Shown here piece by piece: positions 7,751-45,503 of a stretch of 59,635 bases of DNA (the first letter of the stretch is position 1; each line of letters begins with the position of its first letter). The position numbers were made by a program, and so were the translations under genes. Below the pieces are notes generated by a model, which was given only the letters and a program-made list of their open reading frames with translations, had not been told where the DNA came from and searched no databases. The stretch comes from an uncultured virus (IMG/VR IMGVR_UViG_3300031851_003771) (Duplodnaviria > Heunggongvirae > Uroviricota > Caudoviricetes): IMG/VR virus record IMGVR_UViG_3300031851_003771; one strand, given 5' to 3'.

Positions 7751-8197
7751 CTATTGAATTATATGTCTACCAATAAATGCATTAGGAGTTTGTTCTACTT
7801 TTCTTCCAATTTGACTTGTACTGGGTCTATAATTGTTTAATAGTGTTATTCCTAGATCGCTAAATGTTATTTCTGTATCATTATTTAAAAATAGATCCTC
7901 AAAGTTTGTTTCAAACTTCTTCATTGCATCTAAACAAAGTAACGTATATGCATCAACTAATTTTTCACTGTTAACGTGTTTTTCAAATATGCCTTTGATA
8001 ATTTCATATCTTGGACCATTTATCGATTCTCTGATTGTGCTATCAATATTTTCTAATATTGCTGTTGTTAGATTGACTTGTTGACTATTTAGAGGACCAC
8101 CTGTAAATGAATTCGATATTGATCCAAATCTACTGATGACTTGTCTAATACCGCCTACACTTTCAAGTAATTTTGTGCTGTTTCTTTTATCACTCAT
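7751..8197 (-). CDS. Hypothetical protein
   Basis: 148-aa ORF translationally coupled to the upstream gene (TAATG overlap at 8197). Confidence 0.75.
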   Translation of the reverse strand: MSDKRNSTKLLESVGGIRQVISRFGSISNSFTGGPLNSQQVNLTTAILENIDSTIRESINGPRYEIIKGIFEKHVNSEKLVDAYTLLCLDAMKKFETNFEDLFLNNDTEITFSDLGITLLNNYRPSTSQIGRKVEQTPNAFIGRHIIQ

Positions 8198-9252
8198 TAT
8201 GATCGTTTCCCAAAGCTAGTTCCACTAATCGTTGACTTTGTAGCTGTTGCCAAGTCTGCTCCTCCGGCCGGAACTACAAAACTTTTTCCATCTATGTTAC
8301 GTAACTTTTCACCTGTCTTGAGTTTACCTTTGAAAGCCTTTAATTTTGATGCATCCGCTCCACCACCTTTACTTGGATTTATATTAGGTGGTCCGAATGG
8401 TGATAACTCTGATGTTGTATCATTGACTCCACCTTTTTCTTCTTTTTTAGTAATCTTAGGACTTTCACTAGGTGGTGCTGTCATTGTTACACTGTCATCA
8501 AAGTCAGCTGTACTCGACATCATACCTGGAATTAATTCTCCACCGTCTCCTTCTGCTATAGGTACATTGGTTTCTTCGAAAAGTAAGTTCTCAAATTGAA
8601 ATGCTAGATTTATGTTAACTGGCTGTGAAGCAGAATAATCAAATTGATCCATATCCATTCTAGCAAGTCTAGGATGAATTATTCTAGTCTTACTGTATGT
8701 TCCACCTGATATTTGGTAGAAGTCAATACTTTTTAATAATCTGTGTGAAGTAATACCGTGTGACCTCATTCCATAATGATGAGTATCTTTGAACCTATCA
8801 CTGTCAATAAAAACTGATTGTAAATAATTGTGCTTTTCATCGTTCTCTTTGTCCGATGGTGACTCTTTATAAAGTCTTGCATTCTTGTATTCAAATTCAT
8901 ATAAAGTTCTTGCGAACTTCATTCCTAATCCGTCAACAGTGTCATACATTCTCACTGTTACTGGATCGTAATCAATTTTTCGATTGATTACTCTTTTTCT
9001 GTTATACTGATTTATAACGTCTTGTTGTATTGTGAATTTTGGTGCGTCAAATGTGTTGCAAAGAAAATGCAATCTGTCTCTAAATTCTTTAAGATAACTT
9101 ATTCTTTCTTCTAAGAACTCATCTGCCGCGAATTGGTACAGGTTGTATACTAGAACAAACTGATGTTGTTGCCTAGGGGTTGACTGCACGTCTGAGCCGC
9201 TCGTATAAAGTTGAGCGGCTCTATTTGCTGGTTTTAAAACTATACCTGACAT
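8197..9252 (-). CDS. Tail tube-like / baseplate-tube junction protein (gp54/gp48-like)
   Basis: Tube-family pattern (PKFTI..NQYNRKR..YDPVTVRMYD..MDQFDYS..VNINLAFQFE) parallels the adjacent tube gene. Confidence 0.65.
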   Translation of the reverse strand: MSGIVLKPANRAAQLYTSGSDVQSTPRQQHQFVLVYNLYQFAADEFLEERISYLKEFRDRLHFLCNTFDAPKFTIQQDVINQYNRKRVINRKIDYDPVTVRMYDTVDGLGMKFARTLYEFEYKNARLYKESPSDKENDEKHNYLQSVFIDSDRFKDTHHYGMRSHGITSHRLLKSIDFYQISGGTYSKTRIIHPRLARMDMDQFDYSASQPVNINLAFQFENLLFEETNVPIAEGDGGELIPGMMSSTADFDDSVTMTAPPSESPKITKKEEKGGVNDTTSELSPFGPPNINPSKGGGADASKLKAFKGKLKTGEKLRNIDGKSFVVPAGGADLATATKSTISGTSFGKRS

Positions 9253-31130: not shown

Positions 31131-31967
31131 ATGAGCGAAGAAATTAAACAAAACCCGTTAAAGCAGTTTTACAGAGCTCCAAAGTTATACGTGAATTTAC
31201 CGTCAAGAGGTAAGTTTAACGATGTCGTTGATGAATCAATGACTGGTGAAATTTCTGTGTATGCTATGACTAGTAAAGACGAACTATTGATGAAAAACCC
31301 TGATGCATTGCTTAATGGCGACGCAGTTGTTGAGGCAATAAGAAGCTGTGCACCAAGCGTCAAGGATCCAAAAAATCTTCCAGTCTGCGATGTGGACTTA
31401 TTACTGATTGCTATACGTATGGCCACGTTTGGTGAATTTATGGAAGCAAAATTAAAATCTCCTCACACCGGAAAACTTGGTACTTACGACATCAACCTCA
31501 ATAACATTGTTGAAGGTGTTGGTGAAATACCTGCAGAAAATAATGTAACACTAGCTAACGGTTGTACAGTTTACGTCAAACCGTTCACATATGAATTGCA
31601 AACGCAAATAAATTTAGTTGCATACGATCAAGCAACTGCACTTAAAAACGTAGGTGAAGTAAGCAGTTCAAGTGCTCAACAGTTCAAACAGATGTTTACT
31701 AAACTTTCAGAAATTAACACCGACGTCATTGGAAAGAGCATTTATAAAGTAATGACACCAGATGGTGCAAGTGTTGTTGATGCTACGCAAATCAAAGAAT
31801 TTTTAGCAAACCTAGAAACCAAAGACGCAAAAATAATCGATGGCAAGATCGATGATCTAAACAAATCAGGTACTAACTTCAAACAACAAATTATTTGTAA
31901 AGAAACAGAAAAACCGTTCGAAGCTGATATCAAATTGGATCCATCGGATTTTTTCGTCAATTCCTAA
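31131..31967 (+). CDS. Baseplate hub / tail assembly chaperone (gp26-like)
   Basis: NPLKQFYRAPKLYVNLPS.G, MTSKDELLMKNPDALLNG, DVDLLLIAIRMAT; ends ...DFFVNS. Confidence 0.8.
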   Translation: MSEEIKQNPLKQFYRAPKLYVNLPSRGKFNDVVDESMTGEISVYAMTSKDELLMKNPDALLNGDAVVEAIRSCAPSVKDPKNLPVCDVDLLLIAIRMATFGEFMEAKLKSPHTGKLGTYDINLNNIVEGVGEIPAENNVTLANGCTVYVKPFTYELQTQINLVAYDQATALKNVGEVSSSSAQQFKQMFTKLSEINTDVIGKSIYKVMTPDGASVVDATQIKEFLANLETKDAKIIDGKIDDLNKSGTNFKQQIICKETEKPFEADIKLDPSDFFVNS

Positions 31968-32185
31968 TCACATCCGATCCTTCTGAGATACAAGCCTATT
32001 TCCAAGAAATGGCCGAAGAAGCCAACGGTATCAGAAAAAGCATAACAGAGATATGTTGGTATATGAGAGGATCTGTGAGTTATGAACAGGCCTGGGCATT
32101 GACATACGAAGACAAAAAAATAATACACGAATTCCTCAAAGACAATATGGAACGTTTCAAGGGTTCTATGAGCCCTGTGGTATAA
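31955..32185 (+). CDS. gp51-like segment, probably translated by -1 frameshift from the gp26-like gene (alternative ATG at 32009, 58 aa)
   Basis: The -1 frame after T TTT TTC (31949-31955) reads RQFLITSDPSEIQAYFQEMAEEANGIRKSITEICWYMRGSVSYEQAWALTYEDKK...SPVV* to TAA 32183-32185. Missing from the ORF track. Confidence 0.75.
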   Translation, partial: RQFLITSDPSEIQAYFQEMAEEANGIRKSITEICWYMRGSVSYEQAWALTYEDKKIIHEFLKDNMERFKGSMSPVV

Positions 32186-32509: not shown

Positions 32510-32699
32510 ACTAGTACTTATTTTGATCAGTCAGAGTTGTGTCCAATATATTATGATATCACTTTGTCTACGTAGGAATAGAACTAAAGTTCCATTGTAC
32601 AACGCTCTGCGTTAGTTTCTTTAAGAGTTATTATTGTTCTTTGTATTAGAAATTTTATAAACTAGATCATTATACCTTGTATGTGTTTTATTATTTGTA

Positions 32700-33065
32700 T
32701 ACCTATTACCTGGATTTGGCCATACTTCACCCGTTGCCGGGTGAAGGGACCTTTGATATATTACCAGAGATCGTCATACTAACTTGCGGAACCTAAAGAG
32801 GCGGTTGGCCGGTACCCCTATCATTCCTACTTCATCCAACGGAACCCACACATACCCAAAGTTAGCTGTTTATGTGTAAGCTAATGGTTGCATTCTTTTT
32901 CTAGCAGAGCCATTGTCATTTGTGCCTGAGTTAACACTTGCCTTGCGACGCTGAGTTCACCACCTTTTACTTCGGCGCATTGTCAGGATCTTCCGATCAA
33001 ATTGAGTCGCTATGTATTGCCTGAGTTTATTCTGTCGATGTTTGCCTGTATTTGCCCTATGCTGT
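32700..33065 (-). ncRNA. Candidate structured non-coding RNA of unknown family
   Basis: No credible ORF; about 50% GC by spot count; GNRA-capped hairpins on the minus strand; a possible pseudoknot; upstream promoter-like sequence. Confidence 0.55.
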
Positions 33066-33067
33066 GT

Positions 33068-33096
33068 AAATTATACTAAAACAACGTTATGGTCAA
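33068..33096 (-). promoter_or_regulatory. sigma70-like promoter pointing into the non-coding element
   Basis: TTGACC (33091-33096) with TATAAT at 15 nt or TAATTT at 17 nt spacing. Confidence 0.55.
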
Positions 33097-33151
33097 CCTT
33101 TTTTTTATTTTTTGTTTGCTCTTGTTAAAAAAGTGTTATACAATAAGCATT

Positions 33152-33634
33152 ATGAACGGTAAAGAAAGCAAGGTAAGTACCAGTATGCATTGGACGTATC
33201 ACGGTGAAAAAGTAGAAGAAATGCCAGAAGGTGTAGAAGCATTTGTGTATTTGATAACAAATCTCAATAACAATATGAAATACATAGGAAAGAAATTGGC
33301 AAAATTCAAGACAACAAAACCACCTCTAAAAGGCAAGAAGAATAAAAGGCGTGGAACAAAAGAATCAGACTGGAAGGACTATTGGGGGAGCTCAGATAGA
33401 CTTCAAGAAGACGTTGCACAACTAGGTGAAGACAAGTTCTCAAGACAAATATTACATTATTGTCCAAGCAGAGGTATCGCAAGTTATCTAGAAGCCAGAG
33501 AACAGTTTGAACGCAGAGTGTTAGAAAGAGATGATTACTATAATGGTATCATTAATGTAAGAATTGGCGGTTCAAAAATTTTAAAAGAACATTTAAAGAA
33601 TATTAAGGTTGAAAAACAAAGTGACAACACTTAA
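33152..33634 (+). CDS. GIY-YIG family endonuclease-like protein (Seg-like)
   Basis: AFVYLITNLNNNMKYIGKK, YWGSS, YLEAREQF, YYNG. TTGCTC-17-TACAAT lies 7 nt before ATG 33152; alternative ATG 33185 has TAAGTA-N5. Confidence 0.85.
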   Translation: MNGKESKVSTSMHWTYHGEKVEEMPEGVEAFVYLITNLNNNMKYIGKKLAKFKTTKPPLKGKKNKRRGTKESDWKDYWGSSDRLQEDVAQLGEDKFSRQILHYCPSRGIASYLEAREQFERRVLERDDYYNGIINVRIGGSKILKEHLKNIKVEKQSDNT

Positions 33635-35833: not shown

Positions 35834-37615
35834 TTAATGGATACTAACGACCTCGAAATCTTTACCAAAGGAAGTAAAGCCGTTTTCCTTGACAACATTC
35901 ATAATGCTGTTTACTCTACCGGTTAGTTCGTCTTTGTGTGAAATCAAGAATACGTTTTTGTGTCTTTCTCTAGTCATCTTTTTAAGAATGGCCATACTTG
36001 CTTCAACACCTTGTGTATCCATACCACTATCGATCAACTCATCTATGAACAATAAATTAATTGGACTGTTTGTTGATTCAAATATATCTCTGAATGCCCA
36101 ACTTAAACCAAGTATAAGTCTGTTACGTTCACCTCTGCTTAAATTATCAAAGTCTAGTTCTCTTCCTAGCTCTGTAATTTCAACACTTAGATCTGATCTA
36201 AATATAACTTCGTGTGGTAGACCCAAATCTTCTAGGTAATGATTTAGTCTTCCATTTAAGTATGCAAGGTTTTGATCTATAATTTTCTTTCTAATGAACG
36301 AATCTTTGCTCGTCAATAATCTGTACAAGAATTCTTGGTGTTCTTTGAGTTTAGTCAAGCTATTGATCATCCCGTAATCGATCTGCTCAATATTGGAATC
36401 TCTCAATGTTTCAATTTGTTCTATGTGCGGATTCTCTTCGCCTTTGATCCTATCGTGATCATTGACAAGATTATCTAAATTTTGTTTGTGTTTATATGCA
36501 TCATCGTGATCACTGTATGAAGTTACAGGTTGCACTCCAGGATCCCCTACATCTACTATACGTTTTTCAGTGTGTGCAATAGACTCTTGTAGCTGTTTTA
36601 AGCTGTCTGTGTGGGTATCAATGCTTTGTTTGGTACTAGACATTATCTTTTCGTGTGATGTGTTGTCGTGTATCTTTTGTTCACACATTGGACAAGTTTT
36701 TTCTTCAAGTGCTGTTAGGTTTTCATTTAACTTTTCTACTTGACTGGTTAAATTGTTGCTTTCTCTGACATCATAATCAAGTTGTTTCTTTAAACCTAAA
36801 ATCTCTTGTTGTTTTTCTTTCCAATCATTGAGTTGTTTGTGCTGTTCTAGTTCGTGTTCTACATCAATTTGTTTTAGTTCTGTAATTGCAGTTGAAAGTT
36901 CTCTCAACTTCTTATCGTGCTGATCTTCCCACGCAGTACTTTTAATTTTAAAATTACGAATTGTACCTTCTATTTTTTCATTACTTGACTTAACAGCATC
37001 TATACGTAGCTCTTCGCCTTTGATATCTTCTTTAGTTAATCTAATTTGTTCTTTTAACCTATCAGACTTATTAGATAGTTGTGTAATGCCTAGTAGCTCT
37101 TCTATAACTTCTCTTTGTTCTGTTGGCTTCATCGCCAAGAAAGGCATATTGTAAGTGTTAAGAGCAATTACATTTTTAAACAATGCGTGACTCATTCCAA
37201 ACACACGATTAATTTCATCTTGTGTTAATCTGTTTTCACCTTGTGCTTCGTCTGTATCTTTTTCGTTTACAACTTCATCATCAACTATAAACTTAAAATG
37301 ATTTGGCTTTCTGCCTCTTTCAATTCTGTAACTGTGGCCATTTACTTCAAACTCTAAACTAACGTTCATACCTTTTTGGTTGGTTTTATTAATCAAGTTA
37401 TCACGCTTGATGTTAGTAATAGCATCACCGAATAAACAAAAACTTAATGCGTTAATGATAGTAGTCTTACCAGTACCATTTCTAGAACCTTCACCGCCGA
37501 GGTCTAGATTATTACCCAGCACTAAAGTAAGCCCAGGTTGATCTAGTTTAACTACCTGTGTGGCGGCTCCTACACTCATAAAGTTCTTGATTGTTAGTGT
37601 CTTTAATTTTATCAT
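35834..37615 (-). CDS. Recombination ATPase subunit (gp46 / SbcC-Rad50-like)
   Basis: KNFMSVG, Walker A NGTGKTT, Zn-hook CPMC, signature LSRGE, Walker B LFIDE, ISH. Confidence 0.96.
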   Translation of the reverse strand: MIKLKTLTIKNFMSVGAATQVVKLDQPGLTLVLGNNLDLGGEGSRNGTGKTTIINALSFCLFGDAITNIKRDNLINKTNQKGMNVSLEFEVNGHSYRIERGRKPNHFKFIVDDEVVNEKDTDEAQGENRLTQDEINRVFGMSHALFKNVIALNTYNMPFLAMKPTEQREVIEELLGITQLSNKSDRLKEQIRLTKEDIKGEELRIDAVKSSNEKIEGTIRNFKIKSTAWEDQHDKKLRELSTAITELKQIDVEHELEQHKQLNDWKEKQQEILGLKKQLDYDVRESNNLTSQVEKLNENLTALEEKTCPMCEQKIHDNTSHEKIMSSTKQSIDTHTDSLKQLQESIAHTEKRIVDVGDPGVQPVTSYSDHDDAYKHKQNLDNLVNDHDRIKGEENPHIEQIETLRDSNIEQIDYGMINSLTKLKEHQEFLYRLLTSKDSFIRKKIIDQNLAYLNGRLNHYLEDLGLPHEVIFRSDLSVEITELGRELDFDNLSRGERNRLILGLSWAFRDIFESTNSPINLLFIDELIDSGMDTQGVEASMAILKKMTRERHKNVFLISHKDELTGRVNSIMNVVKENGFTSFGKDFEVVSIH

Positions 37616-38616
37616 AGTCTGTTATAAATCTCTATCAGTACTGAATTATCAAATGTGTCTGATTCAATATTTTTAAGTTGATCTAATACAATTTCATCAA
37701 CTGTTTGAAACTTAATCTCACCTTGAAATTCTATTTCATCATCTATTTCTTTGTGTGGTAATAAACTAATCTCTCTTAAACTGTAAGTGTTTTGAAAGTT
37801 TTCTTTTATAAAATTTGCTTCTTCGTAAGTAATATCAATGTCAATTTTAACTCTTACATTTGTTTCTGGCTCTAGGAATTCATCTGGTGCCTCGAGTAAC
37901 TTACTTAATGGAATAGTTCTATACTTTGGACCAGCTGACCATATCTGATACTTGGGTGGTTTATCCCATTCGAGCATCATACATCCACGATCATTGTCCC
38001 AAGCATCTGCATAATTGTGTGCAAAAGGATTACCTATATATGTAACATTGCCTTTTGTTTGACGTTTATGGAAATGTCCAGTGAACACGTGACCAACCTT
38101 ATCAAAATGTCCTGCGTTTAATTCACCGTGGTCTGGCATTTCTACCATAGCATTCATTTTAAAGTTAGGAAGCTCAAAGTGACCAAACATATATTTGGCT
38201 TTTATATTTTTAACTTTTTTCCACTCATTACCAATTAACCAAGGAACTAGTGCTACATCATCTTTAACTACAATTTCATCGATGACTTTTACTTTGGGTA
38301 TTTCTTGAGCGAACACCACCGAAGATATTTCACGTTTATCTCTATAAAACAAATCGTGATTACCTACCAAAAAATAAGTCTGATCAAATGCTTCACTCAA
38401 ACGTTTGAGATTAGAGATCGAGTAGTTGAGTGTGCTTATATTGATAGATGATCTATGGTGATGCCAGTCGCCCAGAAAGATGCAAGTCTCTGCACCAAAT
38501 TTTTTTGCTTCGTCGATAAACCACTTGACAAAGTCTTCACAATCATTGTTGTGTTGCCTTGAATTGTTTTTCAATCCAAAGTGAATATCTGTAAAACAGG
38601 CCGCTTTTTTAAACAT
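37612..38616 (-). CDS. Recombination nuclease subunit (gp47 / SbcD-Mre11-like)
   Basis: Metallophosphoesterase motifs DIHFG, GDWHH, GNHD, GHF, GHFH. Confidence 0.96.
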   Translation of the reverse strand: MFKKAACFTDIHFGLKNNSRQHNNDCEDFVKWFIDEAKKFGAETCIFLGDWHHHRSSINISTLNYSISNLKRLSEAFDQTYFLVGNHDLFYRDKREISSVVFAQEIPKVKVIDEIVVKDDVALVPWLIGNEWKKVKNIKAKYMFGHFELPNFKMNAMVEMPDHGELNAGHFDKVGHVFTGHFHKRQTKGNVTYIGNPFAHNYADAWDNDRGCMMLEWDKPPKYQIWSAGPKYRTIPLSKLLEAPDEFLEPETNVRVKIDIDITYEEANFIKENFQNTYSLREISLLPHKEIDDEIEFQGEIKFQTVDEIVLDQLKNIESDTFDNSVLIEIYNRL

Positions 38617-38641
38617 ATATAAATCTCAAACTTTGATTATT

Positions 38642-38670
38642 ATTATACTACTTTTTTGGATAATTGTCAA
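38642..38670 (-). promoter_or_regulatory. Consensus sigma70 promoter for gp47-gp46
   Basis: TTGACA-17 nt-TATAAT, overlapping the 3' end of gp55. Confidence 0.8.
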
Positions 38671-39481
38671 TAGTTGGACCGAAATCTAATTTAGTTTTTA
38701 TTTCGTTTTCTAATTGTCTAGTATATGACGGGGTTTGTCCAGCTTCTTGTAATAAATCATCTCTTAAACTTTGATGTTTTTTCTCCACATTTAGAATCCT
38801 TGTAAAAGAGTTGGTTATGGCGGCAGTGTAATATGCAAAAGGATTTTCACTTTTGCTTTCATCAAATTGCAAACCAATTTGGCTCAATTGAAGTAATGCT
38901 TGTGATTGCATTTCATCATTGTAAGTGTAACCTCGCCAGTTACCTCTGCTTCCGTACCTTTGACATAACTTCATATACATCAAAGCCAATTTATTTGTAA
39001 GCCTACCGTGACTTAAACTAAAATGTCCGTTCTCCATTCCACCTATCCAGTGACTGATGCCGACAAGTTGCCATTCTCTGTCCTCATTCATTTTGTAATG
39101 TTTAAAAGGAATAAAGTTTAGTTTGACTTTAGTGTCTGCTACTGTTTTAGGATTGGCTTTTCTGTCAGGATCATCCGGTGCGTGATCGTAAGTGTAACAA
39201 CGTATGACAACATCAAGGTCAGATATGTCTCTTGTTTTCACATCCTTACCATTTAATTTTGCTTTAGTGACACCTAGCTCTTCGCATTTTAATTTTGTTA
39301 ATCTTTCAGCACGATTTTTTCTTGCTTCAAGTATCATTTTTTTAGTGATTTTCTCAATTGGTTTTAGAGTAATCAAGTCATAATTGCTATATTCAGGATC
39401 TGTATATGAACAGAAACTGTTCTTGCTTTTTGCAATTTCTTTTAGAATATCTTTGTTATTTAGGTAATTTATACGTTTCAT
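38648..39481 (-). CDS. Late-transcription sigma factor (gp55-like)
   Basis: NYLNNKDIL, NWRGYTYNDEM, FDESKSENPFAYYT...NSF.RILNVEKK; adjacent to gp47/gp46 as in T4. Confidence 0.9.
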   Translation of the reverse strand: MKRINYLNNKDILKEIAKSKNSFCSYTDPEYSNYDLITLKPIEKITKKMILEARKNRAERLTKLKCEELGVTKAKLNGKDVKTRDISDLDVVIRCYTYDHAPDDPDRKANPKTVADTKVKLNFIPFKHYKMNEDREWQLVGISHWIGGMENGHFSLSHGRLTNKLALMYMKLCQRYGSRGNWRGYTYNDEMQSQALLQLSQIGLQFDESKSENPFAYYTAAITNSFTRILNVEKKHQSLRDDLLQEAGQTPSYTRQLENEIKTKLDFGPTIDNYPKK

Positions 39482-44693: not shown

Positions 44694-44738
44694 TATACAC
44701 ACCATATAAATCCAACAGATATTCTACTAAATATCTTT

Positions 44739-44783
44739 ACGTTCATCCTTATAAGGACGGAAGTAGCATTAGCGAAGGAACGC
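44739..44783 (+). ncRNA. Glutamine-I (glnA motif) riboswitch aptamer 1
   Basis: P1 CGUUC(44740-44)/GAACG(44778-82); P2 UCCU-UAUA-AGGA; conserved GGAAGUA...GAAG E-loop around a short P3 (GC-AUUA-GC). Confidence 0.85.
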
Positions 44784-44791
44784 ATTGTAAA

Positions 44792-44844
44792 ACGTTCATC
44801 TTGTATGACATATAAGACGGAAGTAGGCGAAGCCGAAGGAACGC
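44792..44844 (+). ncRNA. Glutamine-I (glnA motif) riboswitch aptamer 2
   Basis: P1 CGUUC(44793-97)/GAACG(44839-43); P2 UCUUGUAU-GAC-AUAUAAGA; GGAAGUA-GGC-GAA-GCC-GAAG. Confidence 0.88.
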
Positions 44845-44870
44845 ACCTAACTTTAACAAGGAGGGTGACA

Positions 44871-45149: not shown

Positions 45150-45383
45150 TTACTTTTTCGTGTAAATTGAGTATAACACCCATACCGCAACTAAACCAAC
45201 TAAACCTTGAGCTGAAAAGCCTGCGATAATGTTTTGTACATTCCCAATTACAGAAATGTTTGGCCAGAACGGAACGTTTTGACCGCTAAACAATACCTCT
45301 AGTACAATTCCTAGAGCTATTAGTGAAACTCCGACATCTGCTAGTGCTGATGACCAAGTTTTTATTTTGTTAATAATATCCAT
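45150..45383 (-). CDS. Small membrane protein (two hydrophobic helices)
   Basis: Start moved to MDIINK at 45383 (SD AAGGAGG); VSLIALGIVLEVLF and GLVGLVAVWVLYSIY segments. Confidence 0.75.
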   Translation of the reverse strand: MDIINKIKTWSSALADVGVSLIALGIVLEVLFSGQNVPFWPNISVIGNVQNIIAGFSAQGLVGLVAVWVLYSIYTKK

Positions 45384-45503
45384 ATTTGGACCTCCTTTAT
45401 TAATAAGTGTATATTGTTGCACAACATACACAGATTGTCAAATATTTAAATGCCAATATTGTGTATAAACGTGATAGTTAACTTAAAGTGGGTTTAAAGT
45501 CAT

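Follow-up and report, generated by a model that had tools for sequence, protein, structure and literature searches.

A double-pseudoknot RNA encoded behind the baseplate-hub operon of Rak2-like jumbo phages and its possible role as a replication primer

The window, i.e. the whole stretch of DNA analysed here (59,635 nucleotides from an uncultured virus, IMG/VR IMGVR_UViG_3300031851_003771), is part of the genome of a large marine myophage of the Rak2-like jumbo phage type, its capsid protein having 62-69% identity with its Rak2-like jumbo phage counterparts (Phosso, PA5oct, GAP32 and others) among the 40 matches listed. A gap of 642 nt (32510-33151) lies between, on one side, a gene for a small membrane protein together with the last part of the baseplate-hub operon and, on the other, a stand-alone gene for a SegE-type GIY-YIG nuclease (33152-33634, plus strand; 160 aa; Pfam PF19835). 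The hub gene and the small gene following it (31131-32185, plus strand; Pfam PF12322) are a constant landmark, towards which the RNA described below points; the nuclease gene is an interchangeable neighbour. Beyond the latter, on the strand of the RNA (35834-39481, minus strand), lie genes for a gp46-like ATPase and a gp47-like phosphoesterase and a gene in the late-sigma-factor position, as assigned by synteny with relatives. That the gap is free of genes, as an earlier note on this DNA had it, is borne out: no coding frame crosses the element and an ORF scan gave no ORF of at least 40 aa between 32616 and 33088.

Elsewhere in the window there is a full-length gene for ribosomal protein L11 (13488-13913, minus strand; both Pfam domains above cut-off), flanked by a kinase-like and a small HNH-like gene. 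Tandem glutamine riboswitch aptamers (44738-44847, plus strand) precede a short basic ORF, and a small membrane-protein ORF at 45150-45431 (minus strand) has no Pfam match.

The composition of the gap is uneven. The region 32700-33065 had been put at about 50% GC; the value is lower, at 45.6%, but the region is GC-rich relative to the window (35.7%), in which 0.17% of 366-nt windows reach 46.4% GC. The tract at 32620-32705 is indeed very AT-rich (19.8% GC). A sigma70-like promoter (33070-33096, minus strand), back to back with the promoter region of the nuclease gene, points into the element. Both hexamers of the proposed TTGACC/TATAAT pair are present (-35 at 33096-33091, -10 at 33075-33070), and the -35 hexamer is kept in relatives; the spacer is, however, of 15 nt, and the promoter is therefore absent from the list made by a consensus scan. 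The full RNA is predicted to be of approximately 360 nt (about 33064-32705, minus strand), its 5' end being placed from the promoter and its 3' end from the second of two repeated words. It would begin with an A-rich leader (33011-33064, minus strand) with short repeated 5-mers, similar leaders being found in relatives. At the relative loci L029, L127, L128 and L130, as in the window, the folded RNA is preceded by an A-rich leader in which a short repeat occurs between two and four times. Two repeats had been singled out earlier: AACUCAG is present at all three positions (32926, 32951 and 33021), these being three of its four minus-strand occurrences in the window, but varies among relatives, and GGCAA is present five times (5/54) rather than four.

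A transcript was sought in public RNA data, coverage of the element resting on four of 20 RNA runs. Marine RNA contigs from three studies, with 0-1 differences from the window, span the element (32765-33037, 32768-33040 and 32764-32977), though they do not give the strand. Of the flanking 600-nt bins, those to one side have depth 0 in each of the four runs, and those to the other side have 0-0.65. The contigs end at the first of the repeated words (32764, 32765 and 32768), a shared end that is a weak hint, because depth is low, the contigs are strandless, and they were picked using the stretch itself.

From 5' to 3', the RNA comprises the leader, a domain closed by helix PA, hairpins PB, PC and PD, the 5' strand of pseudoknot PK2, helix PX, and helix PF, whose loop holds the PK2 partner, followed by the 3' strand of pseudoknot PK1, word 1, hairpin PG and word 2 (all on the minus strand; helix coordinates were read by hand). 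Helix PA (33010-33006 with 32949-32945) was identified earlier as a long-range pair and covaries in close relatives; the interior of the domain that it closes (32945-33010) is variable. A hairpin noted within it (32987-32998) is present in the sequence but varies among relatives. PB (32922-32937) has 4 bp and an 8-nt loop, and is invariant in 10 close relatives, hence uninformative there. PC (32883-32914), supported by covariation in both alignments and by a strand-swap test, has an A-rich apical loop and an asymmetric 3+1 internal loop, which we take to resemble a C-loop. PD (32843-32882; covariation and swap test) presents in its loop (32865-32859) the 5' strand of the long-range pseudoknot PK1, the 3' strand of which is at 32779-32785 (covariation and swap test). 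The earlier note had this loop in a local H-type pseudoknot; it does pair, though elsewhere. The local second helix (32862-32867 with 32879-32884) is rejected, since it is not conserved (76.7% of cells paired, with 435 of 500 shuffles as high). PK2 (32840-32836 with 32808-32804; region 32804-32840) is 98.2% paired with double changes at four of five pairs. The region 32788-32827 holds PX (32827-32823 with 32792-32788) and PF (32819-32815 with 32801-32797), both placed from the alignments. PG (32725-32746), a hairpin of 9 bp with a GNRA loop that was proposed from the sequence and is present there, has GNRA or UNCG loops in many relatives.

The case for this fold rests on covariation, because the overall folding energy is no better than that of shuffles (z 0.16 and 1.14, single-sequence folding). 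In 22 diverse sequences, 92.6% of 26 pairs are formed and 21 pairs have double changes; none of 500 shuffles equals this, a count that is not a probability, because the structure was derived from the same, related sequences. Slid controls of the same alignment drop to 35-54%. Among the 10 close relatives 99.1% of 46 pairs are formed, including all seven pairs of PK1 (100% paired), five of which have double changes. Swapping strands between sequences disrupted PK1, PK2, PC, PD and PG (0/20000 for each), PX being non-significant in this test with a wide window; in within-group swaps of PK1 the own partner was better in 30 cases, worse in five and equal in seven. Covariation among homologues, one of the checks that the earlier note proposed, thus revealed two long-range pseudoknots with strong compensatory change; another, a scan against Rfam, left a large structured RNA without a match in the window. 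The G-U pairs and the GNRA/UNCG loops point to RNA rather than DNA as the folded molecule. The gap therefore encodes a real folded RNA of approximately 360 nt on the minus strand, common to a large group of jumbo phages. Of the three outcomes that the earlier note named as refuting it, i.e. a missing transcript, missing covariation or a conserved reading frame, none was obtained.

When GIY-YIG loci were collected (the best 80 of 416), 41 were found to have an element termed type A directly downstream (motif test) and 33 an element of type B, like that of the window (nhmmer E <1e-5); of the remainder, one has the divergent layout of the window, four are truncated where the contig stops and one is without an element. 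Types A and B, as compared by eye, have in common the 5' domain, the last hairpin and the twin words, but differ in placement of the pseudoknots, and type A matches the type B profile weakly. The type A elements follow the GIY-YIG stop codon closely (L002-L020 and others), and in some of them the RNA starts at that codon. The presence of the element beside the gene in 75 of these 80 closest loci might suggest a guide or partner RNA of the nuclease, of the HEARO or TnpB kind. Such a role is, however, very improbable: a search with the motif of the window core yielded 29 loci, only two with a GIY-YIG gene within 1.5 kb, and the obligate linkage to one nuclease family that characterizes HEARO, TnpB and TIGR systems was not found. 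A PD-(D/E)XK nuclease is nearby in 10 of 16 core-motif loci (ORFs judged by eye, Pfam PDDEXK_15 for one), and at locus L099 it replaces the GIY-YIG gene between unchanged flanks; elsewhere endonuclease VII fills the same slot. Conversely, Melnitz, cyanophages and others carry the GIY-YIG gene without an adjacent gap. The slot beside the element is thus filled by three nucleases unrelated to one another, and the element does not depend on the GIY-YIG gene for its presence. All 11 loci with enough flank, of 13 found through the hub protein, have the element (five of them in the training set); of 119 metagenome pattern matches, only nine were the element.

Genes for GIY-YIG (PHROG 447), PD-(D/E)XK, RusA-like and endonuclease VII enzymes replace one another beside gp46 in the window and at L125, L116 and L118-L120. 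This pattern suggests that the GIY-YIG family are junction resolvases and that the PHROG 447 label 'NAD synthetase' is wrong. The nuclease of the window is, by gene order, a probable junction resolvase; the argument is from gene order because comparisons of structure and sequence gave no support, the predicted structure (pLDDT 85.8) having as its best PDB match the I-TevI catalytic domain (E 0.1), with no SLX1 among the matches listed and no sequence match.

The cultured jumbo phages PA5oct, 121Q and GAP32 have, in the corresponding slot, a promoter-bearing gap without coding sequence, next to a gene for a RusA-like resolvase or endonuclease VII; RaK2 and Atu_ph07 have no gap at the hub locus. 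Sequence models relate these elements poorly to that of the window: nhmmer misses them, model R1 scores them at 11-18 bits, no better than chance matches, Rfam gave no match at six cultured-phage loci, and a BLASTN search of phage and plasmid sequences with the element of the window gave no real match. A descriptor of PK2 plus PF, written after some of the cultured elements were known, matched four times in 121Q and once each in RaK2, PA5oct and the window, with no match in three shuffles of each. Profile and BLAST searches gave four copies in 121Q, three in RaK2 and three in PA5oct, 53-184 kb apart and all on the plus strand, i.e. the majority coding strand; most of 60 listed records, out of 72 for enterobacterial jumbo phages, have four to five places each. 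In the eight copies examined, PK1, PK2 and PX are kept by compensatory change. The same core architecture thus appears in 121Q, GAP32, RaK2 and PA5oct, in three to five dispersed, co-oriented copies, an assignment that is statistically weak and structurally consistent; the marine-to-cultured link, resting on the descriptor, shared topology and synteny, is likewise statistically weak.

XacN1 gave no R1 match; at 7860-8370 (L121) it has a GC-rich gap of 500 nt downstream of the hub operon, without an Rfam or R1 match, which may be a further divergent form of the element. The PA5oct record has, at 75704-76516 (L116), annotations of four tiny ORFs that overlap with the element, and several 121Q-like records have similar calls; these may be false. 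Two RaK2 copies (about 191.6-192.0 kb and 279.9-280.3 kb) have nearly identical 3' halves and different 5' ends, which suggests recombination or conversion between copies.

One PA5oct copy has been detected as RNA. It coincides with ncRNA004 (246116-246734, plus strand), which, according to the accessible text of Lood 2020 (PMC7318152), was found by RNA-seq at 0.08, 0.03 and 0.02% of phage reads, i.e. is rare and early-biased, and was annotated from read coverage only, without structure, family or function. This RNA, of 619 nt, is one of three related PA5oct elements and has a PC-like hairpin, the PK2/PF signature and the twin words, but a 5' region unlike that of the window. It is annotated as ending, on the 3' side, at 246734, which is where word 2 has its final base, and its sequence has no terminator-like U run there. 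The RNA ends differ, the marine contigs stopping at word 1 and the PA5oct RNA at word 2.

The twin words (word 1, 32760-32766; word 2, 32705-32711; minus strand) flank PG. On average 6.7 of seven positions are alike within an element, compared with 3.35 between phages (n=31; anchors chosen by eye), and the 31 elements have 17 different hexamers at these words. The words were placed by comparison, together with the RNA contigs for word 1 and the end of the PA5oct homologue for word 2, the latter being the probable 3' end of the RNA or the start of a hybrid. No covarying partner was found for the words inside the element; the upstream region was borderline (271/5000). The coincidence of RNA ends with the words, and the invariant linker bases in the nested double pseudoknot, could reflect a ribozyme that cuts itself at both words, with the double pseudoknot as its active site. 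This is quite improbable, given the absence of a covarying internal guide for the words, of any Rfam ribozyme match (window, cultured-phage and relatives' loci), and of a helix order like the topologies of group I introns, RNase P or HDV (compared by eye).

All eight words are identical in 121Q, and all six in RaK2, while the helices drift, which suggests a shared protein and not in-cis pairing alone. Each word lies, by eye, in or near a small hairpin loop. It may thus be that the RNA acts in trans, as a scaffold or decoy, the core presenting the words as equal small hairpins to a phage or host protein and the multiple copies raising dosage. That the RNA assembles from marine metatranscriptomes when its flanks mostly do not, and that the downstream gene varies, would be in keeping with such a role. 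The low share of PA5oct reads is not, nor is the observation that the words differ among the PA5oct copies (one pair being loose); a role in trans also leaves the features of the DNA beyond word 2, and the strict co-orientation of dispersed copies, unexplained, and we regard it as doubtful.

The DNA beyond word 2 has characteristics of its own. In the window it is an A-rich, low-GC tract (32620-32704, minus strand), a candidate unwinding element by composition; at the loci compared the next 60 nt past word 2 have 44.6% A and 27% GC on the RNA-sense strand. A hairpin scan located, just beyond, a perfect 5-bp hairpin with a purine-N-A triloop and a C-G closing pair (32601-32613). Such triloops are stable in DNA and are not known to be so in RNA. 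Perfect hairpins of this type (C-G closed, either strand) occur beyond word 2 at 18 of 28 loci, against 0.24 expected, compared with one of 31 inside the RNA body. Only six of 10 cultured-phage copies have one in the stretches scanned. Three regions of 121Q have a pair of such hairpins within 500 nt, and two of these regions later proved to be copies of the element.

The anatomy as a whole, i.e. a promoter, a folded RNA, an A-rich tract, DNA-type hairpins, and dispersed co-oriented copies, is best explained by an RNA-primed origin. The proposal that the element is a cis-acting, ColE1-like origin of replication, its activity being deduced from this anatomy, is one to which we assign a probability of roughly 0.55. 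The earlier note had offered a structured RNA and an RNA-primed origin as alternatives; the two fit together, the origin half being the one argued from anatomy. In the proposed mechanism, host RNA polymerase would start at the promoter and the transcript would fold into the double-pseudoknot core that covariation has established. It would then, on reaching the twin words, stay hybridized to the template, unreleased, something at which the RNA ends at the words hint; this would come about most simply if word 1, kept single-stranded by the core, pairs with the template complement of word 2 behind the polymerase; alternatively, a phage protein might bind both words. Template pairing would be served by words of any sequence, provided both copies match. 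The 3' end of the RNA at a word could then prime the leading strand in the direction of most genes, while immediately past it the A-rich tract and the hairpins of DNA type would open and load helicase or primase. Large genomes of the lineage would carry one to five such origins. GC skew tracks the coding strand only and so gives no independent origin signal. Also against the proposal is the finding that, of ten aquatic contigs (56-233 kb), nine have a single R1 match each, the type A contig having none. Further points that weigh against it are the statistical weakness of the marine-to-cultured link, the constancy of the words within 121Q and within RaK2, the negative R1 search of XacN1, the missing gap at the hub locus of Atu_ph07 and RaK2, the share of cultured copies with a triloop hairpin, the different RNA ends in the marine and PA5oct data, and the ability of T4 origins to do without a folded RNA.

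The same features could in principle serve an R-loop element acting in cis with another job, i.e. a hotspot for recombination or fork restart, or a clamp-loading site for late transcription, with the nuclease and gp46/47 as its partners. In the window, 121Q, GAP32 and PA5oct, one copy does sit between a nuclease gene, gp46/47 and the gene for the late sigma factor, and the inverted repeats, perfect and AT-rich, could be extruded and so offer a nuclease its substrate. However, most copies in cultured phages are far from the nuclease, gp46/47 and sigma genes, RaK2 has no copy at that place, and T4 endonuclease VII is, in the available part of PMC3016281, placed mainly in packaging. Such a role is thus unlikely.

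The comparison with ColE1, for which we draw on the accessible parts of PMC5043065 and PMC4412123, supports an origin in several respects. Both have a promoter for the host polymerase and a folded, non-coding RNA of several hundred nucleotides, upstream of the start site, the strand and start being predicted in the present case. In both, a persistent hybrid is made, or is proposed to be made, via an RNA stretch matching the template downstream, and the single-stranded DNA then serves to load the helicase, as also proposed here. By contrast with ColE1 RNA II, in which the persistent hybrid needs a G stretch of the RNA pairing with a C stretch of the template (PMC4412123), the phage RNA has another fold, with two pseudoknots, and variable 7-nt twin words instead of G runs; it is present in several copies in a phage genome, and gave no match to plasmid sequences or to RNA II/RNA I in Rfam. 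The T4 origins oriF and oriG, as described in the available text of PMC3016281, are likewise dispersed, several per genome, each with a promoter followed by an AT-rich unwinding element, a layout also present in the window. Those origins are, however, of approximately 100 bp, have no common local motif, and need neither a specific unwinding-element sequence nor a folded RNA, whereas in the present element promoter and tract are separated by an RNA that is conserved and ornate.

With respect to described RNAs, Polynucleobacter-1 (RF01718; Weinberg 2010, accessible text of PMC2864571) corresponds to the 5' part of one subtype, in which it replaces the 5' domain of the window RNA. Its model, of 141 positions, does not extend into the shared core or to the twin words; it matches six relatives (1/14 and 5/17), in the same slot and followed by the same 3' core, but not the window (no match above the gathering threshold) or any of five cultured genomes. 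The plasmid motifs ARRPOF, GEBRO and PAGEV, according to the available text of Weinberg 2017 (PMC5737381), are also ornate RNAs (223-349 nt) from replication-tied regions; their context is plasmids, and there was no Rfam match to them here. As far as listings and the openings of abstracts disclose, there is no account of this RNA beyond Polynucleobacter-1 and ncRNA004, though subscription papers and supplement S3 of Weinberg 2010 may hold more.

More broadly, and tentatively, since we rate it at somewhat below even odds, replication in Rak2-like jumbo phages, and in the aquatic relatives that are so abundant, may be initiated by the double-pseudoknot RNA class, the RNA locking onto its own template by means of a twin word that is free to vary. 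Polynucleobacter-1 and ncRNA004 would then be unrecognised parts or members of the class, and 121Q would have four such origins. Few bacterial RNAs of unknown function are both large and ornate, and the majority of these are untestable for want of a host system; the probable members in 121Q, RaK2 and PA5oct, phages that grow on laboratory strains, make this class testable. Should the origin proposal fail, the class of RNA would still stand, as would its structure and its layout in multiple copies. If the RNA is a primer, it would locate the origins of an entire jumbo-phage lineage, Polynucleobacter-1 would gain a function, and the ColE1 strategy would prove to have been invented independently a second time, here with a recognition word that is programmable.
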